Shown in pieces: positions 44,150 through 64,000 of a stretch of 64,000 nucleotides of DNA. The DNA is from Marispirochaeta sp. GTDB lineage: Bacteria > Spirochaetota > Spirochaetia > JC444 > Marispirochaetaceae. The notes below the pieces were generated by a model. The model saw only the letters and a list, made by a program, of their open reading frames with translations, did no database searches and was not told the DNA's origin. Location of the stretch: contig CAXXFF010000002.1 in the NCBI GenBank assembly GCA_963676835.2, positions 96,001 to 160,000 on the forward strand. The letters run 5' to 3'. The position numbers were made by a program, and so were the translations under genes. Numbering within the stretch: the stretch's first letter is position 1; each line of letters opens with the position of its first letter.

Positions 44150-47100
44150 CTATTCCGTTTGGTCTGTTCCCGGAACCAGTTCCTTCATAGAATAAACAAG
44201 ATCTTTGTACTTCTCAGCAGGCTCCCGCCAGCTGTAGACATTCCGGATCATATTATCCCGGGCAGCAGAGAGCTTTTCCGGTGTCTCTTCAGTGAAGATA
44301 CGGTGAAAACGCTGCATGGCATCATACAGAGCGGGAGCAGTGTAATCCGAGAATAGTACTCCGTTACCCTGCAGAGACCTGCCGCTGCGCGCCAGGGACT
44401 TAACGGTATCCTTCAATCCTCCCGTTGCCCGTGCACAGACAAAGGATCCGCAGGCAAATGCCTCCAGCTGGCTGATTCCTCCCGGTTCATGCATGGAGGG
44501 CATCAGGAAAAGATCAGCCCCCAAAAGGGGAATCCGGACATCCTGGTATCCGATGCCCACGGAAACCTGACGGGGAAAGAAATCCGCCAGCTGTAACAGT
44601 CCCCGGGCAAGCTCATCACCCCGTTCATCGCCGCCGGCAACAGCCCCCCCGATAATTCCCTGATAGCCCAATGTGGAAAAAATGCCCCGGGAGGCTTCCA
44701 GAAGCAGCTGGAATCCCTTCTGTTCCGTCAAACGGTGGATCATTACACAAAGAGGCGCATCGGGATCTACCTGCAGCCCCCGGGAGAGCTGAACAAGCAG
44801 CTTGATACGCATCCTCTCAAGGACCTGTCTGCGCCTTCCCGCCTTCATGGTATCAACAGTTTCCGGCTGCAGAAGTTCGGGATATTTTTCTTCAAGCTGA
44901 TCTTTCAGCAAGGAGTCCCTGCTGACCGCATCCTTCAAGCCGGAAAGATTGCGCCGGATAAAATTATCCTCCCGCATTTTATTCATGGCCCGGACACGGA
45001 AATCAGTTCCCACACCGTTGTTTATTCCGGTTACATCGTGGAGAATACGTTCCATGCCGTCGGCCCCTATCTTCAGCTGCTCTGCGTAGCTCGGGGAAAC
45101 AGTGACAATCCTGTCGGCGGAACGGATACCTGCGGCCATGCAGTTTATCCTGCCGGAATCAGACGGGTCTTCAACCCTCCAGTACTCATGATCCCCAAGA
45201 TTAAACAGCCGGTACAGATCCGTGCCTTTTTCGTATCTGTGGTAGGCATCAAAGTACTGCCAGCCTCCGTTGTGGACAATATGAACAAGGCTGGCCCGGT
45301 CAAAGGGCGGATGCCCGGCGTACCCGGGATCACTTCGTATAATGGAGCAGAATATTCCGGTAAAGGCATCGTTGGTAAATACCGCAAGGGGATCAAGTTC
45401 AAAGGTTCTGATAACTTCCGCCGAAGCCCGGGCAAAGGCTGTCCGCCGCCTCAGACGTTCTTCACCGGTAACGCCGAAGTAAAGTCCATCAAAGAACTCA
45501 TGATGGTCAAGAAGATAGTAGTGGATACCATCCACAAGGCCGTAATGTACGCCTATTTCGTACTCCCTGCTCTGGATATAAAAGCGGACAGTCCTGCCGG
45601 TATAACGGATGCCGTAGCGGCGTACGGATTCATCCATCTTTTTACGGACCTTGTCATCTCCCTGCTTGTAATAGGGGGTGATAACAACCGTCTCTTCTCC
45701 CATTACCGAAAGTTCCCGGGGGAGCTCGTAGACAACATTGGCAAGCCCTCCGGATTTCGAGAAGGGGTCCGCTTCGGCGGCAAGAAAAATAAGACTTCCG
45801 CCGCGGAAGGCATTGCTCAGAGAAGCACCGAGGCTGCTTAACGCTTCATCAGCATCAGCCTGCAGGCTTGTAATCAGATACCAGACCGCTGCAGCTGCGT
45901 TCCGGCTTTCCTCCAGCCGGTAAAAATTATACATAAAGCGTTTTACCGCCAGATGATAAGTTTCCCGATGTCCATCCAGAAGGGGCAGCAGGGTATTCAG
46001 CAGAAAATCACGGAACTTGCGATAGGACCCGCTGCGGGCCTTTAATTCCCCGAAAGCAAAATTGGCAAGAAAATAGTTCCTGCCGTTTCCGGAACAGAGA
46101 CGAAAGACCGACTGCTTCAAGACCTCCGGGTAAGCCGCCGCTTTTTTCTCTTCATCCGTCTCTGCCGTAAGATTAAGCAGTTTATACCGGTCGGTATGGG
46201 GAATAATCGCCTCTATCCTGCTTTCTCTCAGCTCCCTGCCGGAATACCATCCGGCCTGGCCGGTTACGGTTGAATACACCGGATCGATAATCTGATAAAA
46301 CGCATCATCATCAATTGGAAGAGAGGGATCATCAAACTGAAGAAAAACACGCTCATCCCGGTCGGCAAAATTAAATGCCCCGAGCACGCCCTTTCTGCCT
46401 GAAAAGCGGACAGCCGCAGCAACCATATTATTATTGGCCCATATAAGATGAGCCCGGCCTTTCTGCCGGCGGTGATTTCCATAAAGATTGGAATAGAACC
46501 CCTGGGTTCCCCGGTTTGCCTCCCGCTCAAAATCATTCCAGTTTACATAGATGTTATCCAGATATACCTTCCAGGATTCCCCTTCCGCACTGCCCTCATA
46601 GTCAAGAATAATACGGCTCAAGAAACCGGTAAGCATGACAGCTGCTTTGAATCCCCGGGCACCGAAGGTATTGAGCGCCCGACGTTCATCATGGTTGCCC
46701 AGGATGCCCAGCAGTTCCGCTCCCGGAGGCAGAATAGAGGGGTAATGCTGCTGGTAGATGTGGTAAATCTCCCGGACATCGGTCTTTCCATGAATAATGT
46801 TTTCACAGATTTTAAAGAGCGCCGAGTTGTAGGGAACCGTTCCGGTTCTGGAAAGATACTGTTCCCTGCCCCAGTAGCACTCTGCCAGGTTTACAAAATA
46901 CTTCTTCCCCAGCCGCAGCAGCAGCCGGTGAATACGCTGGTACAGATAATAATGGAAAGGTACTGCAATGAGTTCCGCACAGGCGGAATCATAATAACCG
47001 GTGGTAACATAATGGTCATACTCACGGTTGTTGTCGATGATTTCTCCTTCCACCAGGGACTCTCTGCTGCGGTAATCACCATGCAGAAAGGGGTAGTTAT

Positions 47101-49072
47101 TGCGCCGCATCATTACCGGGACAGCATGGGAGGAGTCGAAGCGGATTCCATCTATATCGAACTTCTCTATGAGGGTGCAGACTGAATCGGCCAGCCATTC
47201 CCAAACCGCAAATTTCCGGTAATTGAGAAGCTTGCCGTCATTCCAGCTGCCGTAGCGGCCGTCTGTAGAGCCCCGTACTACAAGATTGCCCTGACTGTCG
47301 TAGCAGCGTACTGCCATTTCATCCGGAAGCTCCTCAGAGCGGCGGTTAAGATGGGGAATAATATCAACAATAATCTTTATTCCCAGGCGGTGGGCCTCTT
47401 CGACCAGGCCGAGAAACCCCTCCTCCCCGCCGAGGGCCGGCTCAAGGGCGGTAAGACTCATGGGAGCGAAGGGAGAAGGCGATCTCGCCTCCTCTGCCCA
47501 GTCTTCCCGGTTGCTCCCCCGCTTCTGTATTCCAAGAACATACAGGGCGCTGATGGAATAGCGGGATTTGAGATCCTCCAGATGAGCCCTGATATCACCG
47601 AAGGTACCGGTACGGATGATCTGCCCGGACTCATTGAACACCATCCCGGGATTTTCAGAGCCCCAGTAGAGCCTGGTGTGGCCGTGAATATCGGGAAATA
47701 TCTCGAGGACAAGCTCTCCATCCAGGCTTGGCTGAACATTCAGACGTCCGCCGCTTCCGTCCACCCAGCGGGGCCCGTTCTTCAGATTACGGTAGACCAC
47801 CCAGTCATAGCTCCCCAGGGTACGGAAGATTCTGGAAACCTCCCATATGCCGCTCTCCCGGGAGTAATTGAGGGTGATATCGGTATAATCGAGATTTCCG
47901 TCTACAAAAAGCTTCTCCGCCGATCGGTCCCCGTAGATACGCAGAAAATAACCGGTCTTGCTGCGGGGGAGCTCAAATCTGAAGGTGTGGCTGGTGCCGG
48001 CATCTATGGTGACAAACTGAGTTGCCAGGGGAGCATCAAATTCCTTGGGGGCAAAAACACGTTCAAGAAGGATATTTGCCCGGTTACGGATTTCATGAAT
48101 ATCATGTCCTGAAGCGGCAACAAGCAGTCTCACCACTTCACGGAGGGAAGTGGCATCGTTATGGGTTTTAAACCGCCGGGCCAGTCTTTCCAGCTCATCC
48201 AGCGCTGTCCGGCACTGGTTATAATCGAAGAGACCGGACTCACCGGGAAGCCTGGCATCCAGCTGCTCAAGCAGTGAGTTCCGCTGCTTTTGGGAAAAGG
48301 GCCGTGCTTTGCCTGAAATAGGCGCCGGAGGGGATTCAAATACACCGGCCCGGGTGATTACCCGGTCCAGCAGCAGATCAAACTGCCGTTCCTGCTCCCT
48401 GCTCAGCGGATCGGTGTGGGTGTATCCTGTCTCGACAGCCCGCTCCTCAATTCGGAGAAGGGTAAGAAACATCCCGTATGAATCCTCCAGCCCTTCGGAG
48501 AGATCGGCGTAGACACTGTCAGTCAGATTAAAGCCCAGATAGATCGTGGGCTGCTCTTTTTCCGGCGGGCCTGCATCAACCCAGGCAAGGAGAGAAGTAT
48601 CGGTGGAGATGTGAAAGATGGTAGGACTTGCCGGTCTTTCCCTGACAAAAACAAAACGGCGTCCCGAGAGCAGGGAATGATCAATATCTGAAAGAGCACG
48701 GTGAACCAGAACAAGTCCGTCAAGAAGACGGTCCGCGAGACGTCCCTGACTGGCCACTCTTCTTTTGCCGGACGGTTCATTCTCTGCAGCAGCAGCAAGC
48801 ATCTGATCCCGAAGGGGAATCAGCAGGGAGGAGGCATCACTGGCATTTCCTTCAATCTGAAAGGCCTTGACTGCATTCAGATCCGGATAGAAAGGGAAAC
48901 TCCTGGACTGACGAATAGATTCATCTATTTCATGTTCAATATCCCGGGCACTAAAGAGCTTCCGGTCCTCATCACGGCATCGAATCAGGGCGGAAGGAAA
49001 ATGTACCGAATGGTTCCAGCTCATAGGCACCTCGCTTACGTCCATAGTACCAGCCCCGGGGGTAACAGGCAA
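44150..49072 (-). CDS. Large GH13 alpha-amylase-like + GT5 glycogen/starch synthase fusion (start uncertain)
   Basis: GH13 regions DIIPH, DGIRFDSSH, NLAECYW, LGNHDE; GT5 motifs KSGGL, HNGGWQY, VTVSPSYA, RLTEQKG, PSMHEPGGISQLEA. Confidence 0.88.
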   Translation of the reverse strand: MPVTPGAGTMDVSEVPMSWNHSVHFPSALIRCRDEDRKLFSARDIEHEIDESIRQSRSFPFYPDLNAVKAFQIEGNASDASSLLIPLRDQMLAAAAENEPSGKRRVASQGRLADRLLDGLVLVHRALSDIDHSLLSGRRFVFVRERPASPTIFHISTDTSLLAWVDAGPPEKEQPTIYLGFNLTDSVYADLSEGLEDSYGMFLTLLRIEERAVETGYTHTDPLSREQERQFDLLLDRVITRAGVFESPPAPISGKARPFSQKQRNSLLEQLDARLPGESGLFDYNQCRTALDELERLARRFKTHNDATSLREVVRLLVAASGHDIHEIRNRANILLERVFAPKEFDAPLATQFVTIDAGTSHTFRFELPRSKTGYFLRIYGDRSAEKLFVDGNLDYTDITLNYSRESGIWEVSRIFRTLGSYDWVVYRNLKNGPRWVDGSGGRLNVQPSLDGELVLEIFPDIHGHTRLYWGSENPGMVFNESGQIIRTGTFGDIRAHLEDLKSRYSISALYVLGIQKRGSNREDWAEEARSPSPFAPMSLTALEPALGGEEGFLGLVEEAHRLGIKIIVDIIPHLNRRSEELPDEMAVRCYDSQGNLVVRGSTDGRYGSWNDGKLLNYRKFAVWEWLADSVCTLIEKFDIDGIRFDSSHAVPVMMRRNNYPFLHGDYRSRESLVEGEIIDNNREYDHYVTTGYYDSACAELIAVPFHYYLYQRIHRLLLRLGKKYFVNLAECYWGREQYLSRTGTVPYNSALFKICENIIHGKTDVREIYHIYQQHYPSILPPGAELLGILGNHDERRALNTFGARGFKAAVMLTGFLSRIILDYEGSAEGESWKVYLDNIYVNWNDFEREANRGTQGFYSNLYGNHRRQKGRAHLIWANNNMVAAAVRFSGRKGVLGAFNFADRDERVFLQFDDPSLPIDDDAFYQIIDPVYSTVTGQAGWYSGRELRESRIEAIIPHTDRYKLLNLTAETDEEKKAAAYPEVLKQSVFRLCSGNGRNYFLANFAFGELKARSGSYRKFRDFLLNTLLPLLDGHRETYHLAVKRFMYNFYRLEESRNAAAAVWYLITSLQADADEALSSLGASLSNAFRGGSLIFLAAEADPFSKSGGLANVVYELPRELSVMGEETVVITPYYKQGDDKVRKKMDESVRRYGIRYTGRTVRFYIQSREYEIGVHYGLVDGIHYYLLDHHEFFDGLYFGVTGEERLRRRTAFARASAEVIRTFELDPLAVFTNDAFTGIFCSIIRSDPGYAGHPPFDRASLVHIVHNGGWQYFDAYHRYEKGTDLYRLFNLGDHEYWRVEDPSDSGRINCMAAGIRSADRIVTVSPSYAEQLKIGADGMERILHDVTGINNGVGTDFRVRAMNKMREDNFIRRNLSGLKDAVSRDSLLKDQLEEKYPELLQPETVDTMKAGRRRQVLERMRIKLLVQLSRGLQVDPDAPLCVMIHRLTEQKGFQLLLEASRGIFSTLGYQGIIGGAVAGGDERGDELARGLLQLADFFPRQVSVGIGYQDVRIPLLGADLFLMPSMHEPGGISQLEAFACGSFVCARATGGLKDTVKSLARSGRSLQGNGVLFSDYTAPALYDAMQRFHRIFTEETPEKLSAARDNMIRNVYSWREPAEKYKDLVYSMKELVPGTDQTE

Positions 49073-52374: not shown

Positions 52375-53376
52375 ATGGCGTTTTTCGACCTGCCCCTGGA
52401 GGAACTTGCAATTTACCAGCCCGATGTCAAAGAACCTGATGATTTCGATCAGTTCTGGTCGGATACTCTCTCGGAAAGCCGCAGTTTTGACTTGGATCCC
52501 CGGTTTGAGAAAAAAGATTTCGGTCTTACCCAGATAGAAACCTACGATGTGAGTTTCCGGGGTTTTGCAGGACAGGAGATCAAAGGCTGGTTCCTGCTGC
52601 CCTCCGGAGCCGAGGGCCCTCTTCCGGGGATTGTGCAGTATATCGGCTACGGCGGCGGCCGGGGCTTTGCCACGGACTGGCTGGGCTGGCCTGCCGCTGG
52701 TTACGGCTGTCTGGTAATGGATACCCGGGGCCAGGGATCAAAATGGCGGAGAGGAGATACTCCCGACCTGGAACTCTCCGGCGGCAATCCCCAGTACCCG
52801 GGCTTCATGACCAGGGGTATTCTCAACCGCAATGACTATTACTACCGCAGACTTATTACCGATGCAGTCAGAGCCGTGGAAACAATCCGCAGTCACCATA
52901 AAATTGACGGAGACAGAATTGCCCTTACAGGTATCAGCCAGGGAGGGGGTCTTTCCATTGCCGCTGCCGCCCTGGACGGAAAAGTTACCGCCGCAATGCC
53001 GGATGTTCCCTTTCTCTGCCATTTCCGCCGGGCATGCACCATTACCGATATGCTACCCTATAAGGAGATCGCCGAGTTCTGCCACACCCACCGGGATAAA
53101 GAAGAGATAGTCTTCAACACATTGAACTATTTTGACAACCTCCATTTTGCCAGACGGGCAGAGATGCCCGCGCTCTTTTCCACCGCCCAGATGGACCAGA
53201 TATGCCCTCCTTCAACTGTCTATGCCGCCTATAACAGCTGGCGGGGAAAGAAAGAGATACGGACATATACCTTTAACGGTCACGAAGGGGGAGAAAGCTA
53301 TCAGTTTCTCGAGCAGCTCTCTTTCCTGTCAGGAATGGCAAAAATGACAAAAGCTGCCGGGCCAAACGGACAGTGA
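52375..53376 (+). CDS. Acetyl xylan esterase / cephalosporin C deacetylase (CE7)
   Basis: [28 protein letters not shown] nucleophile elbow, D.ICPPST, HEGG. Confidence 0.93.
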
Positions 53377-53723
53377 CAAAGGACTCTCTTCCGGGACTGC
53401 TGTTTCCGGTACTTACCGTTGCCCTACTGGCGGCAGGTCAGGTTTCCGCAAAATACGGTGCCTCCCTTAAAGCCGCTGGCAGCGGAGGTCTTCTCTATCT
53501 GCTCATTTCATACGGATGCTATATGCTCAGGGGAATTACCTGGGCAGGGACGCTGCGCCGCATGCCGGTAAGCCGGGCATACCCCTTACTGGCCGCTGGA
53601 TATCCTCTTATTCTCATCCTTTCATTTGCGATTTTCCGGGAAGAGTTAAATGCCGTAAAAGCTGTGGGCGCCGCTTTCATTACCCTGGGAGTCATTCTTG
53701 CCGGAGCATCTTCTGATGAATAG
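53373..53723 (+). CDS. Small DMT/EamA-SMR membrane protein, ArnE/F-like flippase subunit
   Basis: 116 aa, 4 [18 protein letters not shown]...GAAFITLGV. Confidence 0.75.
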
Positions 53724-54078
53724 CTGTACAGCCGCCGCAGAAGTAATTCTCACCGGGATAATAACCTCAACAGCACAGATCCTGCTGCGCCAGGCCGCCC
53801 CGAAGATTGTCTTTAACCGGGGACCGGTGAGTTTCATTGCTTCTGTTATCAATCCGCGTCTTGTAATCGGCGTATGTCTTGCCGCCGGGGCGCCACTGCT
53901 TTATTTTCATGCCCTCCAGACCCTTCCACTCTCCCTGGCCTTCGGCCTTTCAGCCCTCTCCTATATATGGGTACCCCTGGGAGGATGTCTCGTTCTCCGG
54001 GAACGCATTAACCGCCGGCGCCTTCTGGGAACTGCCGGCATCATCACCGGACTGCTGATCTGGAGTATCGGGCTTTGA
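53716..54078 (+). CDS. Second small DMT/EamA-SMR membrane protein, ArnE/F-like flippase subunit
   Basis: AQILLR, LPLSLAF..SALSY, LRERI...GTAGIITGL; start MNSCTA. Confidence 0.75.
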   Translation: MNSCTAAAEVILTGIITSTAQILLRQAAPKIVFNRGPVSFIASVINPRLVIGVCLAAGAPLLYFHALQTLPLSLAFGLSALSYIWVPLGGCLVLRERINRRRLLGTAGIITGLLIWSIGL

Positions 54079-54824
54079 AAATTACCCTGGTTATTCCCAC
54101 ATTTAACGGCTCCGAAGAGCTCAAGCGGCTTATGGAACAGGTGGAAGCAGTACTCGAACAGTCAGACTTTGCGGATTACGAAATAGTCCTGGTGGATGAC
54201 GGAAGCTGCGGGGAATACCGGCTCTTTATTGAAGACAAACTGATGCCGGAGCACCCCTGCCTGAGGGTACTCTACCTCCAGGGGAACTATGGGCAACAGC
54301 TTGCAACTATTACCGGACTAGCTCATGCCCGGGGAGATATAATAGCCACCATGGATGATGACCTGGAACACCCCCCGGCACAGCTGACCACATTAATACA
54401 AAGTATCCGGGAAGGCAGCGACCTTGCTTATGGAATTGCCGAAATTTCCTACGGTTCGCTGCTGAGAAAGTGGGGAGCCCTTCTCAGAGACCAGGTGTTT
54501 CGCCGCGTACTCAGGGTCCCTGCGGGGATACGGGTTTCAAGCTTCAGAGCCATGACCCGGGAGCTCGCCCTGGCGGTTATCGCCGGCCCCTGCCCCTGGC
54601 CCTACTTTTCCGCCATGGCCGTACGCCGCCATCCCCGTATTGCAAATATCGCCATGGATTTTCCCCGCAGAACCGACGGCAGGCAGAGAATTCTCCCTCT
54701 TGCCTTACTTCTGCTTAGAATCCTCCTGGCCTATTCTCTCCCGGGAGCAAAAAAGGCTCCACCGGTCAAGCTGCCTCCCCATGCGGAAATATTCTGCTCC
54801 CCCGCAGCGGGAGAGCTGCCGTGA
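54075..54824 (+). CDS. GT2 polyprenyl-phosphate glycosyltransferase (ArnC/GtrB-like)
   Basis: LVIPTFN, VDDGS, NYGQQ.A..GL..ARGD, TMDDDLEHPP, SSFRAM. Confidence 0.88.
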   Translation: MKITLVIPTFNGSEELKRLMEQVEAVLEQSDFADYEIVLVDDGSCGEYRLFIEDKLMPEHPCLRVLYLQGNYGQQLATITGLAHARGDIIATMDDDLEHPPAQLTTLIQSIREGSDLAYGIAEISYGSLLRKWGALLRDQVFRRVLRVPAGIRVSSFRAMTRELALAVIAGPCPWPYFSAMAVRRHPRIANIAMDFPRRTDGRQRILPLALLLLRILLAYSLPGAKKAPPVKLPPHAEIFCSPAAGELP

Positions 54825-56065
54825 GTACAATCCTTGTATTGGGAGGCGGAAGCAGTCAGTTTTCGGGAATCCACCGCTGCCGCGAAATGGGACACCGGGT
54901 TATTGTTGCGGATATAAACGCGAATGCCCCGGGCTGTGCCCTTGCCAATGGCTTTGCGGAAGCCAGTACCTTTGATCCGATAGGGGTTATCCAGGCGGCA
55001 AAAAAACACAGGGCCGACGGGATTCTCACCATGGGAAGCGACCAGCCGGTCCTCACCCAGGCCATTGCAGCGGCCGAGCTGGGACTGCCGTCATTCCTTT
55101 CTCCGGAAGCAGCCCTGGCGGCAACCAATAAAAAAGCGATGAAGCTTCCACTCCGGTCGGCAGGCGTTCCGCTTGCCCCCTTTGATATCCTTTCAGCCGG
55201 AATCCGGCGGGTACCGGAGTCAATTAAACTCCCGGCAGTTATGAAACCCCTGGACAGCCAGGGCCAGCGGGGTATTTTTTACCTTACCCGGAGGGAGATT
55301 CCCCGGGAAAACATAGAGGAAACCCTCTCCTATTCGAGGCAGACGGAATTTATAGTAGAAGAGTTTTATCCCGGAGGAGAGGTTACCCTCTCCGGCTGGC
55401 TCTGCGGGGGAGAACTGCAGGTGTTCAGTATCACCGACCGGGTAACCCGCCACCTGCTGCCCCGGCTGGGGGTTTGTTTTGCCCACCGTTTTCCCAGCAT
55501 GTATGCAGACAGGAGAGCTGATATTACCGCTGTCGCCGAGGACGCACTCAAGACCCTGAACATAACGGAAGGACCGGTTTACATACAGCTTTTTGTCGGC
55601 CCGGAAGGAATCGTTATTAACGAAGTAGCCTGCCGCCTTGGCGGTGCCTACGAGGATGAGTTTATACCTCTTATAACAGGTATAGATATCCTTGATCTGC
55701 TCATCCGGGGCAGCCTGGGTGAAAAAATACTGCCGGAAGAGATTCGCCCTGCAATAACCAGCCCTCCGGCAGTGACTGTACCACTGCTCTTCTGCCGTCC
55801 GGGAAAAATAGATCACTGGCAGGGAACAGCTGAAGCCGCAGCAATTCCAGGGATAGTGAATTATACACCGATTCTGCCGGCAGGCACCGTTATCGGCAAC
55901 ACGGAAAACTCTACCCAGCGGGCAGCCTACGCAATTATCAGCAGCCCCACTCCGGCGGAGGCAAACCTTTCTGTAGAGGAGTTTTTCCGCACCGCAGGCC
56001 CTGTTGATGAAGAAGAAAACCCCATGTTTATCGATTCCCGCCATGAGATGTGCTTTCCTTTTTAG
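54821..56065 (+). CDS. ATP-grasp ligase
   Basis: ILVLGGG, TNK..MK, VMKPLDSQGQRG, IVEEF..G.E, INEVACRLGG. Confidence 0.9.
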   Translation: MSTILVLGGGSSQFSGIHRCREMGHRVIVADINANAPGCALANGFAEASTFDPIGVIQAAKKHRADGILTMGSDQPVLTQAIAAAELGLPSFLSPEAALAATNKKAMKLPLRSAGVPLAPFDILSAGIRRVPESIKLPAVMKPLDSQGQRGIFYLTRREIPRENIEETLSYSRQTEFIVEEFYPGGEVTLSGWLCGGELQVFSITDRVTRHLLPRLGVCFAHRFPSMYADRRADITAVAEDALKTLNITEGPVYIQLFVGPEGIVINEVACRLGGAYEDEFIPLITGIDILDLLIRGSLGEKILPEEIRPAITSPPAVTVPLLFCRPGKIDHWQGTAEAAAIPGIVNYTPILPAGTVIGNTENSTQRAAYAIISSPTPAEANLSVEEFFRTAGPVDEEENPMFIDSRHEMCFPF

Positions 56066-56103
56066 TGTTATTTCTTAACGCCTTTCTCCGATCTCTCCGC
56101 TCT

Positions 56104-56139
56104 CTTCGATCACTTCGATAACTTCGATAACTTCGATCT
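56104..56139 (+). repeat. 9-bp tandem repeat, four copies
   Basis: CTTCGATCA CTTCGATAA CTTCGATAA CTTCGATCT. Confidence 0.9.
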
Positions 56140-56200
56140 TTATGTTTCCGGCCCGGGAACTCTTTACTGCCGCCATGCCGAAAAGGTATTCTGAAGTTCT

Positions 56201-57211
56201 ATGACAGGATTTCCGGGTTTAACCAGCAGCTTTACAAGCTTTACGTCAGGCAAATTATTTCGAATCATTACCTCTGCTCTGATACTTCTTTCAGCAGGAC
56301 TTTTTTTCAGCTGTTCCGGTAAAGACAGCACCCAAACCCTGCGTATCGCAGAGCAGTATGGTCTGGCCTATGCTCCCCTTCAGCTTATCCGCCTGGAGAA
56401 ACAGCTTGAAGAAGCAGGAATAAAGACGGAATGGGTCAAACTGATCAACACCGCCTCCATCCGGGAAGCCATGCTGGCCGGCAGGGTGGATATCGGCTTT
56501 ATGGGGATTCCCCCGTTTCTCATCGGCCGGGATAAAGGTATGGACTGGAAGATTTTCACCGGACTCTGCCGGGCGCCCCTGGGGCTGGTCAGCCGCAACA
56601 GGGAACTCAACAGCCTCGCAGACTTAAGAGCGGAAGACAGAATAGCCCTTCCCCAGCCGGGAAGTATTCAGCATATTCTTCTCTCCATGGCCGCCGAAAG
56701 GGAACTGGGGGACAGCCGCCGCTTCGACTCCAGGCTGGTTACCCTCTCCCACCCCGACGGATTTTCCGCACTCTCGAAGGGCAGCGGCATCAGCGCCCAC
56801 TATACATCGCCCCCCTATCTGTTCGAGGAGCTTAAACTTAAGGGAGCACGACTGCTTTCGGACGGAGAAACAGCCTTCGGCGGCCCTTTTACCTTTATTG
56901 TGGGAGTTGCCCGGGGAAATCTGTCTATGGAAAAACAGAAACTGCTGCGGAACTTCAATCGTATTCTAATAGCAGCCATGGAACGTTTTGAATCAGATCC
57001 TGAAAGCACCATACAAACTCTGAAATCAGAATACGCCATTTCCGAGTCCCTGCTCACTGAGTACCTCCTATCCGAAGGGCTTGAATACACTCCGGAAATT
57101 CTGGGAGTAGAACGGTTTCAGGATTTTATGTACACCTCAGCGTTGATAGAATCTTCTCCGGCGAAAATTGATTCACTTATCCTGAAAGTGGCCGGAGAAG
57201 TACAGCAGTGA
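56201..57211 (+). CDS. ABC substrate-binding lipoprotein, SsuA/NMT1-like
   Basis: Lipobox FFSC, IAEQYGLAYAP, IALPQPGSIQHILL, HPD, SPPY. Confidence 0.85.
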   Translation: MTGFPGLTSSFTSFTSGKLFRIITSALILLSAGLFFSCSGKDSTQTLRIAEQYGLAYAPLQLIRLEKQLEEAGIKTEWVKLINTASIREAMLAGRVDIGFMGIPPFLIGRDKGMDWKIFTGLCRAPLGLVSRNRELNSLADLRAEDRIALPQPGSIQHILLSMAAERELGDSRRFDSRLVTLSHPDGFSALSKGSGISAHYTSPPYLFEELKLKGARLLSDGETAFGGPFTFIVGVARGNLSMEKQKLLRNFNRILIAAMERFESDPESTIQTLKSEYAISESLLTEYLLSEGLEYTPEILGVERFQDFMYTSALIESSPAKIDSLILKVAGEVQQ

Positions 57212-58002
57212 AAATCTCAGGATTTCTTAATTCCCTGAAAAAAACTGCAGTCCGCCTCCTGATTTTCCTGCTGACAGGTCTGATCTGGGAAATCACCCGC
57301 AGGGCAAGCGGAGCACCGGAGGCACTGTTTCCTTCAATACCTGCAATTCTGAACCGACTTGCCATAGCCGTATTCAATGAGGATCTGAAAGAGCAGATAC
57401 TCTTTTCCCTGATACTTATCGGTTCAGGCCTTGCCGCCGGTTCTGTAACCGCCGCCTTTCTGGTTTTCCTTGCAGAACTGCACCCCGTCATGGGAAAGGC
57501 AGTTGATACCGCTGCCGCTGTATTCCACCCCCTGCCGGGGATTGCCCTCCTGCCGGTGGTAATACTCTGGTTCGGCACCGGAATTCCTGCAGTACTTATT
57601 ATAATCGTCCACTCTGTTCTCTGGCCCCTGACGGTGAATCTGAAAAGCGGGTATGAAAACCTGCCAGCCACATGGAGAATGGTGGCGGATATCTTCGGGT
57701 ATTCCCCTGCAGAACGGTTTTTCCGCATAACCCTTCCCGGCTCCTTTCCTTTTGTGCTGTCAGGCCTCAAGATCGCCTGGGCAAGAGCCTGGCGGGCCCT
57801 CATCAGCGCCGAAATGGTTTTTGGTGCCGTAGCCTATGCCGGAGGGATCGGCTGGTTTATTTTTTCCCGGAGGATATTCATGGATACCGCCGGCATCTTT
57901 GCGGGGATTCTGGTGGTAGTCGCCCTGGGACTCATTGTCGAGCAGGGCCTGTTCCGCCCCCTTGAAAAAGCCGCCCGGAAAAGATGGGGAACCCTGCCGT
58001 GA
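57208..58002 (+). CDS. ABC permease (SsuC/TauC-like)
   Basis: PLPGIALLP..ILWFG, WARAWRALISAEM. Confidence 0.9.
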   Translation: MKISGFLNSLKKTAVRLLIFLLTGLIWEITRRASGAPEALFPSIPAILNRLAIAVFNEDLKEQILFSLILIGSGLAAGSVTAAFLVFLAELHPVMGKAVDTAAAVFHPLPGIALLPVVILWFGTGIPAVLIIIVHSVLWPLTVNLKSGYENLPATWRMVADIFGYSPAERFFRITLPGSFPFVLSGLKIAWARAWRALISAEMVFGAVAYAGGIGWFIFSRRIFMDTAGIFAGILVVVALGLIVEQGLFRPLEKAARKRWGTLP

Positions 58003-58736
58003 AGAACCTTCTCTCCTTCAGAAACACCCGTATTGAATATCCCGGAAGCCCTCGGCCGGTACTGCAGAATTTTTCCATGGAGCTTAAACAGGGAGAACTC
58101 CTCTGCGTTCTCGGACCATCGGGCTGCGGAAAATCCACCCTGCTTAAAGCCGCTGCAGGCCTTATCTCTCCCGCAAAGGGCAGTATAACTCTATCACCGT
58201 CATCTCCGGAGAGGCTGTACCCGCGGGTTCTGGTACTTCAGCAGGAGGATCAGCTCTTTCCATGGATGACTGTAGAGGATAATGCCGGCATTCCCTTGAA
58301 AAGAGGGGGAAACAAAAACTGGCGGCAGAAAACACGGGAAATCCTTGCATCCCTTTCCATGGGGGATGCCGCCGGACTCTATCCGCACCAGCTTTCCGGG
58401 GGTATGCGGCAGAGGGCGGTCCTGGCCAGGGCCCTTGCCGCGGAACCGGAACTGCTGATGCTCGATGAACCCTTTGCCCATCTGGATGCCTCGGTGCGCT
58501 CATCCCTGCAGCATCTGGTAACAGATATCTGGCAGCAAAAAGAGAGCATGCCTTCCACGATTCTGTTTGTTACCCACGATATACAGGAAGCCCTGGTTCT
58601 GGCCTCAAGGATTCTGCTGTTTGACAGTAAAGGAAATATCCGGGAAGACAGAATAATAGAACTCCCCCGTCCGCGGGATCCCTTTGACGAAGAACTTGTT
58701 GCCATGGTCAGGGAAATCAGGAATCTCCTGGACTGA
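57984..58736 (+). CDS. ABC ATP-binding protein (SsuB/TauB-like)
   Basis: [34 protein letters not shown]. Confidence 0.93.
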   Translation: MGNPAVKNLLSFRNTRIEYPGSPRPVLQNFSMELKQGELLCVLGPSGCGKSTLLKAAAGLISPAKGSITLSPSSPERLYPRVLVLQQEDQLFPWMTVEDNAGIPLKRGGNKNWRQKTREILASLSMGDAAGLYPHQLSGGMRQRAVLARALAAEPELLMLDEPFAHLDASVRSSLQHLVTDIWQQKESMPSTILFVTHDIQEALVLASRILLFDSKGNIREDRIIELPRPRDPFDEELVAMVREIRNLLD

Positions 58737-60306
58737 AATCGAGCCGGTAGATTCGAACCTTCCACTCTTCCCGGTAGCGGTAGGCAGCAATCCTCATCCC
58801 GTAACCCGGGCTGGAAAACTCTTTTATAAGAGTGCCATCATTTTTCAGCAGCTCCTTCATTTCCGGATACCAGTAGGCAATATTGCCGTACAGTACATTC
58901 CACACCGGTCTGCGGGAATAAATAAAATCCAGCTCATCCGACAGAATTACATACTCTACAGACCGTTCCTTCAGGTACTCATCCAGACTGATTCCCGCAG
59001 AGCGGAGTTCCGCAAGATTTCTCCAGTCATAAAACTGCCCACCCGTCCCGGTCACATATTCGCCATAAAGATTACTCACTACTGTAGAATCCGCAGACAC
59101 CACATCCCGGATCTCTCCCATAAAGGACTGAAAGGACTCGGTCTCCCGGGAAATATCAGACAGGGAAAACCGGATATTTGCGGCCAAAAGAAGAACCGGA
59201 ATCACCAGCAGGAGTTTTTTCAGCATGAAATTCCCCGCAGGAAGAAGCGCACCGTAGATCCCCAGGTAAAAGAAAGGCAGGAGAAAAACGATTGAAGGCT
59301 GACTGTACTTACCAATAAGTGCCACAGCTATTGAAAAGCCCGCAAAGCCTGCCAGGGGCAGAGAATTACGGTTCCGGAAAAAATCGATAGTCAGAACCAG
59401 GGGAAACAGCAGCATCTGCAGCATAATCGGCGGAGTATGATAGGTCCCGCCTATGCGGAAAAACAGCTTTTTATAGAAAGCGGGAAGTCTCAGCCATTTA
59501 ATATCCGCCGGCTCCAGAACACCCAGAGGCCTGCCGTAGGCCAGATAATCAGAAATAAACGATGCATTAAAAAGGAAGCTGAGCAGCACAAAAACCGACG
59601 CAAAAATCCCCGTAGACAGAAGAAAAAGAAGCCCCTCTTTTAGGGTCCGTTTTCTTAACCCGATTGAGACCAAAAGAAAAAGTCCTGCCGGCCAGGCAAT
59701 AATAAAAGCATTGGGATGAAAACCGGCAGCAAGCCCCGTCACCGCCCCGGCAAAAAAGCCGCGCTTACCCGGGGGTAAATCATTTTTTGTCAGAAGAACC
59801 AGAACAGCAGTTTCCAGCAGAAGCAGCAGACTCTCCTGCCTGGCAAAATGGCTGCTGTAGATAAACTGAATATCCGCAGCCATTAGTAGGAGCATAAAAA
59901 TTCGCAGGAATTCTGATCTTCTGTTTTCCGCCTCATTCCGCCCCTCCCCGCCATTGCCGGGAGAGATATTGTGCAGAAGACGCCAGAATAAGAGCAGACT
60001 TACTGTTCCGGCCAGAAGTGAGAGAAGCCGCACAGCAAAAAGGCTGTAGCCGAAGAGCAGAACAAAGGGTATCTGCAGCAGATGGTAGAGTATTTTTATT
60101 GCATGGGGATGCCGGGGATAAAGATCAAAGAAGTCTTCCGTTGCAGCAGGAGATCCGGCATCCATCATGGAGAGGGTAAGCCCGCTCAGCCATGGCTCAT
60201 CGGTATGAACAAAAGGATAGGTATCCAGAAAAAGCAGGTTTACGGCAAACCACGACAGAGCGATAAAAATGACTATATGAGCTTCGCGGAGTTTACAGTC
60301 GACCAT
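58717..60306 (-). CDS. ArnT/PMT-like GT-C membrane glycosyltransferase
   Basis: TM1 followed by acidic HTDEPW loop, LFGYSLFAVRLLS, RQES, many TM helices, soluble C-terminal domain. Confidence 0.8.
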   Translation of the reverse strand: MVDCKLREAHIVIFIALSWFAVNLLFLDTYPFVHTDEPWLSGLTLSMMDAGSPAATEDFFDLYPRHPHAIKILYHLLQIPFVLLFGYSLFAVRLLSLLAGTVSLLLFWRLLHNISPGNGGEGRNEAENRRSEFLRIFMLLLMAADIQFIYSSHFARQESLLLLLETAVLVLLTKNDLPPGKRGFFAGAVTGLAAGFHPNAFIIAWPAGLFLLVSIGLRKRTLKEGLLFLLSTGIFASVFVLLSFLFNASFISDYLAYGRPLGVLEPADIKWLRLPAFYKKLFFRIGGTYHTPPIMLQMLLFPLVLTIDFFRNRNSLPLAGFAGFSIAVALIGKYSQPSIVFLLPFFYLGIYGALLPAGNFMLKKLLLVIPVLLLAANIRFSLSDISRETESFQSFMGEIRDVVSADSTVVSNLYGEYVTGTGGQFYDWRNLAELRSAGISLDEYLKERSVEYVILSDELDFIYSRRPVWNVLYGNIAYWYPEMKELLKNDGTLIKEFSSPGYGMRIAAYRYREEWKVRIYRLDFSPGDS

Positions 60307-60307
60307 A

Positions 60308-61072
60308 TCAGGCCCAGATATACTTGAGAACTTCCTCTCTCAGGGCGACAAACTCAGGTAAAGATTTTATCTCCCGGCTGTCCCGGTCGGAGTAACCGGA
60401 GCTGAACGGCGTCTCCACCTTCTGCAGAATCCGTCCGGGAAGTTCAGACATCACATAAACCTGAGTGGAGAGATAAATAGCTTCTTCAACGCTGTGAGTA
60501 ATGAATAACACAGTTTTCCGGGTTTCCCTCCACAGGCTCAGGAGCTCTTCCTGAAGGTGCTCACGGGTAAGAACATCCAGCGCTCCGAAGGGTTCATCCA
60601 TGAGCAGAATATCCGGATCATTGGCAAGAATCCGGGCAATGGCTACCCGCTGCTGCATTCCCCCCGAAAGCTCATAGGGCTGCATGTGGCCGAAATCCGA
60701 CAAATGAACCCTGCGCAGGTTCTCCTCAACAATTCTCTTCTGCTCCGATCTGGCAACTCCCCGCATTTTCAGCCCGAAGGCGACATTCTGTTCCACATTG
60801 AGCCATGGATAGAGGGAGGGCTTCTGGAATACTATCCCCCGGTCCTTTCCGGGGGCTGTCAGGGGGGCACCCTTTTCCATAATCGTACCCCTGGTCGGGG
60901 GAAGAAACCCGCCGATAACGTTAAGCAGGGTCGACTTTCCGCAGCCCGAAGGGCCGACAATACTGATAAAATCACCCTGATTCACCGTCAGGGAAACATC
61001 CTGTACCGCGGAAAGAGGACCCTTTTTTGTCTCAAAGTCTACGGATATCCCGGAGAGTTCCAGAAGATTCAA
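60308..61072 (-). CDS. tauB: Taurine-type ABC ATP-binding protein
   Basis: [40 protein letters not shown]. Confidence 0.85.
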
Positions 61073-61076
61073 ACTG

Positions 61077-62105
61077 CTACTGCCCCAGAGCCTCTTCTAT
61101 ATACTCAGGATGAAGAGCCGCCTTGAAGGCATCAATATCGGGAGACGAGATAATGGTCTGCTGGGTAACCAGAAAATCCGCAGTTGCCTTCAGCACACCG
61201 GCAAGATCTCCGATCTGCCCCTGTGTTCCCATATACCGGGAGGAGATCTGGTCTTCTCCGGTCAGCAGCACCAGACTTTTCATCTGCCGGGCAGCCTCTG
61301 CCTCGGGAATATCGAACTGACGGCTTACTGCAGCAGCAGCCTCACTGCTGTTTTCATTGTAAAAATCTACAGCACGGATCTCGCTCTTTATATACTTTGT
61401 CACCAGGTCGGGGTATTTTTCGGCGAACCCCTTTCTAACCACGGTAATATCTCCGGTAAGGTATCCGGCCGCTGCCAGTTTTCTGGAGTAGACAACAACC
61501 TTACCGCCACTCTCAACCATTTTTGCAAGAGTGGGCTCCCAGATAAAGCTGCCGTCAATATCTCCCCGGTGCCAGGCTGCCAGGGCATCAGGAGGCTGCA
61601 TATCAAAAATATCAACAGTTTCGGGATCTACCCCTTCAAGCTCCAGGGCTGCCAGCAGATGATAATGAGTGGTTGCACCAAAGGGAACAGCAATCTTCTT
61701 GCCCGCAAGGCTCTTTACATCGGTAATGCCAGAATCGTTTTTAACCACCAGAGCCTCATTGTCTCCGATAATATCGTGTATCCAGATCACATCGAAGGGA
61801 ACCTTGTTGGCAATACCCGCAGCAATTCCACTGCTTCCGGAAAGACCGATATCAATACTTCCCGCGGCAAGGCCAGTATTGAGTTCTGATCCCGAGTTCA
61901 GCTGAACCCATTCCACCAGAATACCGGTCTCCTCTTCGAACCAACCAAAATCCTTGGAGATTATCTGGCCGTTTGGTATGGCCTGAAATCCGATAACGAT
62001 CTTTTCCGGAGCACCGGAAGCGGATTCTTTATTCCCTGCAGCTGCAGCATCAAGTGCAAACAGTGCAAGAAGAGACAGCAGTACGATTCCTTTCTTCATA
62101 GTCAA
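61077..62105 (-). CDS. tauA: Taurine-type ABC substrate-binding protein
   Basis: IGDNEALVV, GKKIAVPFGATTHYHLL, AAWHRGDIDG.FIWEP, resembling TauA. Confidence 0.8.
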   Translation of the reverse strand: MTMKKGIVLLSLLALFALDAAAAGNKESASGAPEKIVIGFQAIPNGQIISKDFGWFEEETGILVEWVQLNSGSELNTGLAAGSIDIGLSGSSGIAAGIANKVPFDVIWIHDIIGDNEALVVKNDSGITDVKSLAGKKIAVPFGATTHYHLLAALELEGVDPETVDIFDMQPPDALAAWHRGDIDGSFIWEPTLAKMVESGGKVVVYSRKLAAAGYLTGDITVVRKGFAEKYPDLVTKYIKSEIRAVDFYNENSSEAAAAVSRQFDIPEAEAARQMKSLVLLTGEDQISSRYMGTQGQIGDLAGVLKATADFLVTQQTIISSPDIDAFKAALHPEYIEEALGQ

Positions 62106-62165: not shown

Positions 62166-62957
62166 TTATACTTTCCCTTTCCAGGGAACGATCATCAGCT
62201 CGGCTATCCGGATAATCCTGTCCAGAATTATCCCGGTTATTCCCATAACAATAATCCCCATAAACATCACATCGCCCCGTAAGAATTTTCCCGCATCAAG
62301 CACCATCCAGCCGATACCGGAACGTGCCGCCACAATCTCCGAGGAGACAAGGGTGGTGTAGGTAAATCCTATACTGACCCGCATCCCGGTGAAAATACCC
62401 GGCAGACAGGAGGGAAAAATAACATGTACTAAAGTCTTCCATTTCCCCGCCCCGAGAGACCGGGCAACATGCACTCTCTCCATGGGGACAGAGGCAACAG
62501 CCGCCATGGCATTAATAGACAAAGGAGGAAAAGCAGCCATAAAAAGAAGGGTGATCTTCGATGCATTGCCAATGCCCAGCCATATAACCAGAATAGTGTA
62601 GTACGCCAGAGGCGGAAGGGGCCGGTAGAATTCAACCAGGGGATCAAAAACTGCCTTCACCTTTCTGCTGTAGCCCATAAACATGCCTAAGGGGATGGCC
62701 ACAATACAGGCTAAAAGAAAACCGGAAATAACCCGAAACAGACTGTCCCCTAAATGGTCCAGCAGTGTTCCTCCCCGGTACCCGTTAAGTGCGATATCCT
62801 TGAAGGCCTGAAAGACGCTGGCAGGAGTTGGGATAAAGTACTCGGGGAAAATCTTCAGACCGGCAATAACCGTCCAGGCCAGTAAAATGGCCAGAACCGA
62901 CAGTACCGAGATAATAAATTCACTTATTCTTTCTTTATCGTACTTCTTCATTCCCAT
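62166..62957 (-). CDS. tauC: Taurine-type ABC permease
   Basis: FDPLVEFYRPLPPLAY, IWLGIG, TTLVSSEIVAARSGIG. Confidence 0.85.
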   Translation of the reverse strand: MGMKKYDKERISEFIISVLSVLAILLAWTVIAGLKIFPEYFIPTPASVFQAFKDIALNGYRGGTLLDHLGDSLFRVISGFLLACIVAIPLGMFMGYSRKVKAVFDPLVEFYRPLPPLAYYTILVIWLGIGNASKITLLFMAAFPPLSINAMAAVASVPMERVHVARSLGAGKWKTLVHVIFPSCLPGIFTGMRVSIGFTYTTLVSSEIVAARSGIGWMVLDAGKFLRGDVMFMGIIVMGITGIILDRIIRIAELMIVPWKGKV

Positions 62958-63042: not shown

Positions 63043-64000
63043 TCAGTTAACGCAGCTTGCCGCCGTTTTTCTGGCAACCACGTTGCCGATGATTCCTCCG
63101 CCTGTCAGGGCTGCAAGGAAAATCCATCCCGAAAGGGAAAAGTTGGCAATGGGAGTATACAGAGCACCCACGTTGCAGCCGTTGGCAAGACGGGTTCCAA
63201 ATCCCATAAAGAGACCGCCCATGGCGAAGAACACAACCTGCAAAGGCTTAACCTTAAGCTCCGAGGTGAAAGTTGCCTTGAAGGTACCTGCCAGAAGAAG
63301 AGCTATAAGAGTACCAAGCACAATGCCTATGTTCTGCACCGAAACGGGATTAACAAAAATGGATGTTTCAAAAAAGCCTGCCGGCATATGGGTAAATGCT
63401 GCAATGGATTCTGAAGAAACTCCAAAGAGCATCAGAAGCTTGCCAAACCACATACCGTAAACAGTGGAAGCCCCCCACCCTGCTTTTGTAATACCCATAA
63501 GCAGAGAAAAGACCACGGCAATTACAATTGCCCCGGTTCGCATCTGCCAGGGACGGACAAAAAGCATATCATAGGTCTCACTGCTGAAAAGCTTGAAGGG
63601 TTTTGCAGCTCCCCGCTCTTCAAGAAGCCTGTTCTGCTCAAGCTCTGTTCCTACACCGGAAAACCGGTTCGCAGCAATCTGCTTATCTTCATATTTCCTG
63701 GCAAGCCAGGCGACCAGAGCCGCCAGCAGCACAGTAAGAATCACCGCACCAAGGTAACCGCTCATACCGTCCCACATAAACAGATCCGGAAGATAGACAC
63801 CGCCGGCAAGCTGCTCGCCGGTAACGGTGGAAAACCAGGAATCCGTAACCCATGATGCGGTCTTCTGTACAGGAAACCCGATAAAAACTCCAAAAGCGAA
63901 GAACACCAGGGTGGCTGCTGCCCGGGGAAGTCCGGTCACCAGGTCGGTAAGTACTCCCGAAGCACAGCACGAGGAAAAGGTCATACCGAAACCGAAGGAA
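63043..64000 (-). CDS. YeeE/YedE sulfur-compound transporter (5' end outside the window)
   Basis: FGFGM....CCASG and MGFGTRLANGCNVG conserved Cys motifs; multi-TM. Confidence 0.85.
   Translation of the reverse strand, partial: SFGFGMTFSSCCASGVLTDLVTGLPRAAATLVFFAFGVFIGFPVQKTASWVTDSWFSTVTGEQLAGGVYLPDLFMWDGMSGYLGAVILTVLLAALVAWLARKYEDKQIAANRFSGVGTELEQNRLLEERGAAKPFKLFSSETYDMLFVRPWQMRTGAIVIAVVFSLLMGITKAGWGASTVYGMWFGKLLMLFGVSSESIAAFTHMPAGFFETSIFVNPVSVQNIGIVLGTLIALLLAGTFKATFTSELKVKPLQVVFFAMGGLFMGFGTRLANGCNVGALYTPIANFSLSGWIFLAALTGGGIIGNVVARKTAASCVN

Follow-up and report, generated by a model that had tools for sequence, protein, structure and literature searches.

What does an Arn-like set of sugar-transfer genes do in a spirochaete when it is joined to an ATP-grasp ligase and an importer, and to which acceptor is its product attached? 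This question was raised by nine genes at positions 52375 to 60306 of a 64,000-nucleotide stretch of Marispirochaeta sp. (contig CAXXFF010000002.1, positions 96,001 to 160,000; the whole stretch is called the window here), which belongs to a genome of 97% completeness (G000). Because the closest named record was a Marispirochaeta metagenome-assembled genome (L017; 66% identity in the glycosyltransferase of the GT-C fold), the host is presumably a free-living spirochaete of the anaerobic type. An initial annotation of the window had proposed that an imported small molecule is ligated to a sugar, carried on a lipid, flipped, and grafted onto a surface glycolipid or protein. Our analysis indicates that these genes very probably belong to a conserved sulfur-transfer island, a context that had been overlooked: the cluster is tightly linked to exported rhodaneses, a YeeE transporter, and an NAD(P)H reductase, starting at the edge of the window.

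Relatives of the GT-C protein (58717..60306, minus strand) were collected via an alignment of 63 homologues, which gave 438 relatives from genome contigs and 333 from metagenome contigs. The top 80 of either set yielded 71 and 64 loci, respectively, near-duplicates included. Conservation was counted in the 53 homologous loci of at least 20 kb (long loci), which came from Spirochaetota and Bacillota. Together with GT-C, these loci encoded the rhodanese RhoA (52), a GT2 glycosyltransferase (49), the ATP-grasp ligase (49), any type of YeeE (49), the rhodanese lipoprotein RhoB (47), the substrate-binding protein (SBP) and permease of the importer (44), TusA (39), LysR (39), a reductase (38), the ArnB-family aminotransferase WecE (35), RmlB (18), and a pair of SMR proteins (8). 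The co-occurrence expected by the initial annotation was thus upheld for the ATP-grasp, GT2, importer, and GT-C. The arrangement was also conserved, in that the ATP-grasp operon converged on GT-C in 41 of 49 loci, the rhodaneses diverged from GT-C in 45 of 52, and, in both phyla, SBP lay directly 3' of the ATP-grasp in the majority of loci.

Whole genomes, among which relatives are not independent, showed the same association. The 251 Spirochaetia genomes were counted by hand with cut-offs set at clear score gaps (E<1e-55 for RhoA, E<1e-40 for RhoB, and E<1e-120 for the ATP-grasp orthologue): GT-C was found in 54 genomes, RhoA and RhoB in 51 each, and the ATP-grasp orthologue in 53, and for each of the last three, 50 of the genomes also encoded GT-C. 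Among the 301 Bacillota genomes, the 11 with a strong GT-C were the same 11 that had a strong RhoA, and RhoB was found in eight of these. The pattern was common to the two phyla and patchy inside families and genera. Because the GT2, the ATP-grasp, the importer, and the convergent GT-C recur in two phyla, and because dN/dS against L017 was 0.08–0.16 in eight genes of the finding (the ABC ATPase lies outside this set), the cluster is not a chance arrangement.

Two further accounts, namely that the island is specific for selenium or that its two arms are mere unrelated neighbours, one being a stand-alone envelope modification, were together judged very unlikely. The best NCBIfam matches of LysR and YeeE were selenium-associated models (all below cut-off), a MnmH/SelU gene adjoined five of the 53 long loci, and SelD was present in 43 of 65 carriers. 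MnmH/SelU lay directly 3' of RhoA in L040 (over cut-off), L057, L060, L070, and L081, loci in which no ABC importer was seen. However, SelD could be found neither in G000 nor in 21 further carriers, so selenophosphate is not required, and a selenium-specific role as a requirement was ruled out. The view of unrelated neighbours is at odds with the near one-to-one co-occurrence of the two arms in both phyla, which persists across several rearrangements.

A quick tree of the ATP-grasp contained one group per phylum (SH-aLRT 98), so no donor was inferred; the ATP-grasps of the window and L017 stood on a long branch of 1.64 changes per column. The nearest relatives of the donor-making genes (L015) and of the GT-C and rhodanese genes (L018) differed, pointing to recombination where the two convergent units meet. 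RhoA had four rhodanese domains in 12 long loci (e.g., L032, L036, L040, L057, and L075), spread over at least three branches of the tree; all 12 were without an ABC ATPase beside GT-C and eight also without SBP, whereas 37 of the 40 loci with a two-domain RhoA had kept the ABC ATPase. At L178:3843-9449, a distant GT-C (E 4e-32) was accompanied by GT2, WecE, and RmlA/B, with no rhodanese or ATP-grasp, and this arrangement is possibly an ancestral-type polysaccharide context.

Next, we consider the sulfur arm, most of which lies beyond the window; positions there are those of L152, to which 50000 is added for extended window coordinates. RhoA (L152:17281-18201, plus strand), an RdlA orthologue, consists of two rhodanese domains, the active-site residues of which (Cys121 and Cys260) were invariant in 61 sequences. 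RhoB (L152:16301-17224, plus strand) is a tandem-rhodanese lipoprotein with one active-site Cys, an invariant lipobox Cys, and a flexible tail ending in Asp-Asn-Ser. These two genes, 2–4 kb past the window end, diverge from a minus-strand run that comprises a CoA-disulfide-reductase/rhodanese fusion (CoADR-rhodanese; L152:14345-16045), predicted to be a persulfide reductase, the full-length YeeE/YedE sulfur transporter (63043..64000, truncated by the end of the window; L152:13043-14326 in full), a Tau-like importer, and, as its last gene, GT-C. The Tau-like importer consists of a TauC-like permease (62166..62957, by family match), a TauA-like binding protein (61077..62105; 235 bits, below the cut-off of 304; found in 11 of 53 long loci), and a TauB-like ABC ATPase (60308..61072), and is an accessory of the full-length-YeeE variant.

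YeeE retained three invariant residues (Cys120, Cys121, and Cys384), with scores below the TsuA cut-offs; the C-terminus of the full-length form read Cys-Val-Asn in six of 21 members, including that of the window (63043-63060). The available text of two reports describes YeeE as functioning in thiosulfate uptake (PMC7449682, PMC11073785), and that of a third describes a Thermotoga yeeE induced by thiosulfate (PMC9431562). Two interchangeable inner modules were found, one composed of a split YeeE, TusA, and a thioredoxin reductase (TrxR)–thioredoxin fusion, and the other of a whole YeeE and the CoADR-rhodanese fusion; their reductases never occurred in one locus. With either module, RdlA, RhoB, and YeeE would strip sulfane sulfur from external thiosulfate or polysulfide, and this sulfur would move inward and then be reduced to sulfide with NAD(P)H.

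The locus of Halanaerobium congolense DSM 11287 (L051) holds the whole island. The portion of Data Set S2 of PMC5497025 that was available contains an entry, Q6Q1E1, labelled as H. congolense rhodanese, and its N-terminus is that of the L051 RhoA (300 aa). We infer that Q6Q1E1 and the L051 RhoA are RdlA; RhoA agrees with RdlA in its length of ~300 aa, its export, its two active-site Cys residues, and the presence of an H. congolense orthologue. RdlA of this organism is said to have been reported by Ravot et al. in 2005.

By eye, distant RdlA homologues without GT-C adjoined multiheme cytochrome, molybdoenzyme-like, or Sel-like genes. Multiheme cytochrome c genes lay by those of L165, L166, L169, and L171–L174, in most cases together with ResB/CcsA-like genes; SelA/SelB-like genes adjoined those of L165 and L166.

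We then examined the sugar arm, which is encoded on the plus strand. It comprises two ArnE/F-like SMR proteins (53373..53723, a predicted flippase subunit and spirochaete-specific accessory, and 53716..54078, by family match), a short polyprenyl-phosphate-type GT2 (54075..54824), the ATP-grasp ligase (54821..56065), and the importer, which consists of an SsuA/NMT1-type substrate-binding lipoprotein (SBP, 56201..57211) and, by family match, an ABC permease (57208..58002) and an ABC ATPase (57984..58736). The nine open reading frames (ORFs) of the initial annotation, which also counted an esterase upstream, were all present at the coordinates given, family scans matched the names it had assigned, and its four stop/start overlaps were seen in the sequence at 53373 (GTGA), 53716 (8 nt), 54075 (TTGA), and 54821 (GTGA). 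Its importer converging on GT-C was likewise borne out, as the 3' ends of the ABC ATPase and GT-C genes overlap tail-to-tail by 20 nt (58717-58736). Five degenerate 9-nt tandem units are located between the ATP-grasp and SBP genes (56077-56138), and a promoter scan remained at chance level (13 versus 9.8 ± 3.1).

The best matches of the SMR proteins were ArnF (45 bits, cut-off 99) and ArnE (37 bits, cut-off 92). The GT2 (~245 aa) contained GT-A motifs and matched best the ArnC and PgfS models (ArnC, 73 bits, cut-off 529). ArnC and GtrB carry two C-terminal membrane helices; these were missing from the ArnC/GtrB-like GT2 of the island, a 19-residue hydropathy above 1.8 being reached in one of 80 sequences. 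Fusions of GT2 and ATP-grasp accounted for six of 16 long matches scanned. The lipid-carrier logic put forward earlier holds, and we consider a pathway that attaches a sugar by way of a lipid carrier probable. In this pathway, the GT2 would load the sugar on polyprenyl phosphate, the SMR pair, where present, may flip it, and GT-C would transfer it on the outer face.

The ATP-grasp was assigned to the L-amino-acid-ligase/PurT/PurK group by its ATP-grasp_4 and LAL_C2 domains and by its fold. Its structural model (pLDDT 95.6) resembled the L-amino acid ligase BL00235 with a TM score of 0.78; an uncharacterised Anaerococcus protein and L-amino acid ligases ranked closest, followed by PurT, PurK, and biotin carboxylase. 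The predicted nucleotide- and Mg-binding residues (K104, K142, E180, Q256, E268, and R272) were all invariant, the residues D74, E187, H222, R367 were also invariant, and C219 was near-invariant. We take the position of Cys219 to be that of BacD Glu273; alignments without BacD contained no clear Glu at this position. A longer ATP-grasp paralogue was found at G000:C3:269877-276458 in an operon with cytidylyltransferase-like genes, and weaker matches of the paralogue kind were widespread, with 175 of 251 Spirochaetia genomes having some match at E<=1e-30.

The substrate of this ligase can be narrowed by the importer and the donor genes. SBP matched SsuA_fam with 73 bits (below the cut-off of 163.5), and because SBP and a DASS transporter, the latter found in six loci, never occurred in one locus, an anionic ligand is suggested. 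Since WecE was encoded in 35 of 53 long loci, the amine comes from the sugar and the partner of the ATP-grasp must be a carboxylate, so that the ligase may couple a carboxylate, probably the anion taken up by the SsuA-type importer, to the sugar amine.

An alternative that we regard as unlikely is that the ATP-grasp takes the place of ArnA or WecD as a PurT-like ligase of formate or acetate, that the resulting N-formyl or N-acetyl sugar shields or stabilises the exported rhodaneses, and that the importer serves separate sulfur uptake. PurT and PurK were among the close folds; the SsuA-like importer was swapped for the DASS transporter in six loci and was elsewhere missing while the ATP-grasp stayed; and in G007, in which GT-C and RhoA were both broken, the importer ORFs were still there. 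However, the closest characterised folds were L-amino acid ligases and the LAL_C2 domain was present, SBP is encoded right after the ATP-grasp in the majority of loci in either phylum, and formylation does not account for the near-invariant Cys219 and His222.

With respect to the donor sugar, RmlA, RmlB, and WecE in combination yield dTDP-4-amino-4,6-dideoxygalactose. Bacillota clusters hold RmlA, RmlB, and a WecE over cut-off (the two NCBIfam scores of the WecE in L067 were 518/375 and 456/435 bits), and where the three genes are clustered a nucleotide-linked 4-amino-4,6-dideoxyhexose would be produced; the genes were seen, and the chemistry follows from family knowledge. WecE was not found in G000 (best match, 170 bits), for which the same type of sugar may derive from an unlinked CapD/DegT pair on contig C4, a candidate amino-sugar source; in L030, such a pair is found close to the cluster. 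No locus had both an SMR pair (15 loci) and WecE (63 loci), a pattern that is confounded with phylum. Matches in the ESM Atlas carried generic names only.

These data modify the relationship to the Arn pathway assumed in the initial annotation. Its statement that Arn genes are absent was correct for ArnA and a conserved deacylase, neither of which was among the neighbours, but the lack of an ArnB-type gene is a local feature of this lineage, and the idea that the ATP-grasp occupies the place of ArnB was contradicted by a clustered WecE that exceeded the NCBIfam cut-off in 35 of 53 long loci. The ArnA family was not among the conserved neighbours of 142 loci, and no acetyltransferase or deacylase was found among the conserved cluster neighbours. 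The CE7/AXE1 esterase (52375..53376, plus strand; 382 bits), which had been proposed as an ArnD-like deacylase, overlaps the next gene and yet lies outside the conserved system: family members were found in the locus of the window, L015, and L017 only, and one of 53 long loci is too few for an ArnD substitute, which was ruled out. Likenesses to the Arn pathway are the ArnB-family aminotransferase, the polyprenyl-phosphate GT2, the SMR pair, and a GT-C fold with an Asp-Glu motif, whereas all components scored below the Arn cut-offs and the ATP-grasp, the importer, and the rhodanese/YeeE arm are additions.

Finally, we focused on GT-C and its acceptor. The protein forms a family of its own, with a weak match to PMT_2 and the motifs H34-x-D36-E37-x-W39, R156-Q157, H197-P198, and RPxWNxLYGN. 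Its model (pLDDT 94) showed the GT-C superfamily fold with an acidic motif in a luminal loop, in which D36 and E37 are invariant. The best fold matches were ArnT (Z 25.4; rmsd 4.4, 433 residues aligned) and Pmt4 (Z 25.3; rmsd 3.6, 350 aligned), followed by STT3 (Z 23.3); identity to all solved members was 8–15%, and 12% to ArnT. The curated ArnT model did not match GT-C, and a homologue reached 28 bits against a cut-off of 567. Thus ArnT, which modifies lipid, and Pmt4, a protein O-mannosyltransferase, tied within 1 Z unit. Lipid A was excluded, and generic envelope modification was not supported, because lpxC was not found in G000; of the four other carriers checked, it was not found in G258, G259, and G261 and was found in G257.

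The tail of RhoB is a tentative candidate for the acceptor. Following a variable linker of ~20 residues, Ser was the last residue in 78 of 80 distinct tails and Asp stood at position -3 in 76; the two tails not ending in Ser came from a truncated copy and from a fragment of a paralogue. L072 is without RhoB, and there the same D-x-S tail was present on a duplicated RhoA. ORFs ending in D-x-S numbered 17 of ~3835 in G000. RhoB was relocated yet kept in G199, G251, G526, and G562. C-terminal Ser or Thr residues serve as glycosylation acceptors for TfpO and TfpM, according to the available text of PMC9829042. None of 104 RhoB sequences had a Cys among the last six residues, and a modification would therefore be needed for the arm to carry sulfur. 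In L168 and L170, where GT-C is absent, a rhodanese-fold lipoprotein beside the RdlA homologue ends in Gly-Gly-Cys, which suggests, by analogy, that the serine tail is an arm whose thiol comes by modification; these lipoproteins (L168:9543-10130 and L170:6857-7468) are encoded between the RdlA homologue and a molybdoenzyme/NrfD-like operon.

Based on these features, we tentatively propose, at less than even confidence, that an N-acylated amino-6-deoxysugar is carried on a lipid, flipped, and attached to the terminal Ser of RhoB. A more specific version, to which we assign a low probability, is that the acid imported and joined to the amino sugar by the ATP-grasp bears a thiol, so that the amino sugar grafted to the RhoB Ser by GT-C would be a post-translationally added swinging arm passing sulfane sulfur from RdlA to YeeE. 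Such an arm would be the sugar counterpart of the cysteine arm of SoxY, of phosphopantetheine, and of lipoyl arms, in the setting of fermenting anaerobes that produce H2S from thiosulfate.

A number of observations weigh against these proposals. RhoB was not found in six draft genomes bearing GT-C (G105, G276, G303, G481, G563, and G564), and no D-x-S-tailed ORF was seen in the checked loci of GT-C genomes without RhoB. Conversely, G168 has a RhoB with the D-x-S tail and the whole sulfur arm, without GT-C and the ATP-grasp orthologue. Distance correlations with GT-C over 35 loci (L031, with two RhoB paralogues, left out) did not single out RhoB (r=0.66) from RhoA (0.68), and the ATP-grasp correlated best (r=0.77), so co-evolution was uninformative as a test for the acceptor. 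The importer was absent from nine of 53 long loci, and WecE-type genes were found in only eight of 53 GT-C-bearing Spirochaetia and not in G000, so that the donor sugar here is unproven.

Protein abundances in Halanaerobium WG8 point in the same direction. The available part of the PMC5497025 supplement lists the ATP-grasp, SBP, WecE, RmlB, RhoA, RhoB, and YeeE in the proteome. Its counts (supplement 7, count unit unlabelled) for glucose versus glucose with thiosulfate were 18/23/23 versus 20/22/23 for the ATP-grasp, 21/18/19 versus 15/17/17 for SBP, 22/27/23 versus 20/23/26 for WecE, 5/5/5 versus 6/6/4 for RhoA, and 0–2 in both for RhoB; GT2 and GT-C had no text match in the part of the table available, which is uninformative. 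The pathway is therefore expressed in WG8 and not induced by thiosulfate, and the sugar-arm proteins (~15–27) far exceeded RhoB, an excess more readily explained by a bulk product, such as a lipid, than by a single protein of low abundance.

These data bear on the somewhat unlikely alternative that GT-C targets a membrane lipid or a small acceptor on the outer face, in which case the product would be a membrane-anchored sulfur carrier or cofactor serving RdlA and YeeE, and the tail of RhoB would be a docking motif only. In addition to the WG8 abundances, this alternative is favoured by the tracking of GT-C in Bacillota by RhoA (11/11) rather than RhoB (8/11), by ArnT being tied for the best fold match, and by the persistence of the D-x-S tail without GT-C in G168. 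It would, however, demand a common phospholipid or glycolipid, as carriers occur both with and without lpxC, and it leaves unexplained the strict free terminal Ser and the tail on the RhoA copy in L072. The attachment to RhoB likewise resembles known systems in part only. TfpO and TfpM would be alike in that the exported protein receiving the lipid-linked sugar at a C-terminal Ser/Thr is encoded with the enzyme, but they use O-antigen units and act on pilins (PMC9829042, available text), whereas GT-C has a dedicated donor pathway. Similarly, the SoxY-type cysteine swinging arm and the Gly-Gly-Cys lipoproteins share with RhoB a flexible arm at the C-terminus of the partner of an RdlA-like enzyme, but the arm of RhoB is without cysteine.

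The sulfur arm also differs from described clusters. It shares a split or whole YeeE, TusA, and conserved cysteines with YeeE/YeeD (TsuA/TsuB) and the YTD cluster; DsrE was not among its conserved neighbours, and exported rhodaneses, the NAD(P)H reductase, and the sugar arm are found instead. Of the YTD components (YedE, TusA, DsrE, and Chp1/2) listed in the available text of PMC9751629, only YedE and TusA are common to the island. Elsewhere in the window, a 1640-aa protein (44150-49072) appeared by eye to be a fusion of alpha-amylase-like and glycogen-synthase-like domains.

To our knowledge, the RdlA rhodanese is the only named marker of fermenters that convert thiosulfate to sulfide. Halanaerobium-type fermenters perform this conversion independently of the Dsr pathway and cause souring of gas wells (PMC5497025, available text). 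In the available text of PMC5497025 and PMC3035371, the rhodanese is treated alone, and the glycosylation genes, the importer, and the RhoB tail are not mentioned; no paper linking the sugar pathway to rhodaneses or YeeE was found in the full-text literature searched, which did not cover subscription journals. The system is real and widespread and, as a form of lipid-carrier glycosylation coupled to sulfur transfer outside the cytoplasm, apparently undescribed. RdlA is now set in an island of ~15 genes that also includes a reductase, a channel in the membrane, and a glycosylation pathway of its own, and that reaches about one-fifth of the sampled Spirochaetia (54/251) and 11 of 301 Bacillota. 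If the proposed functions are true, acylation of a nucleotide sugar by an ATP-grasp would, like the new GT-C family, represent new enzymology, and a sugar-borne sulfur arm would constitute a new class of prosthetic group.

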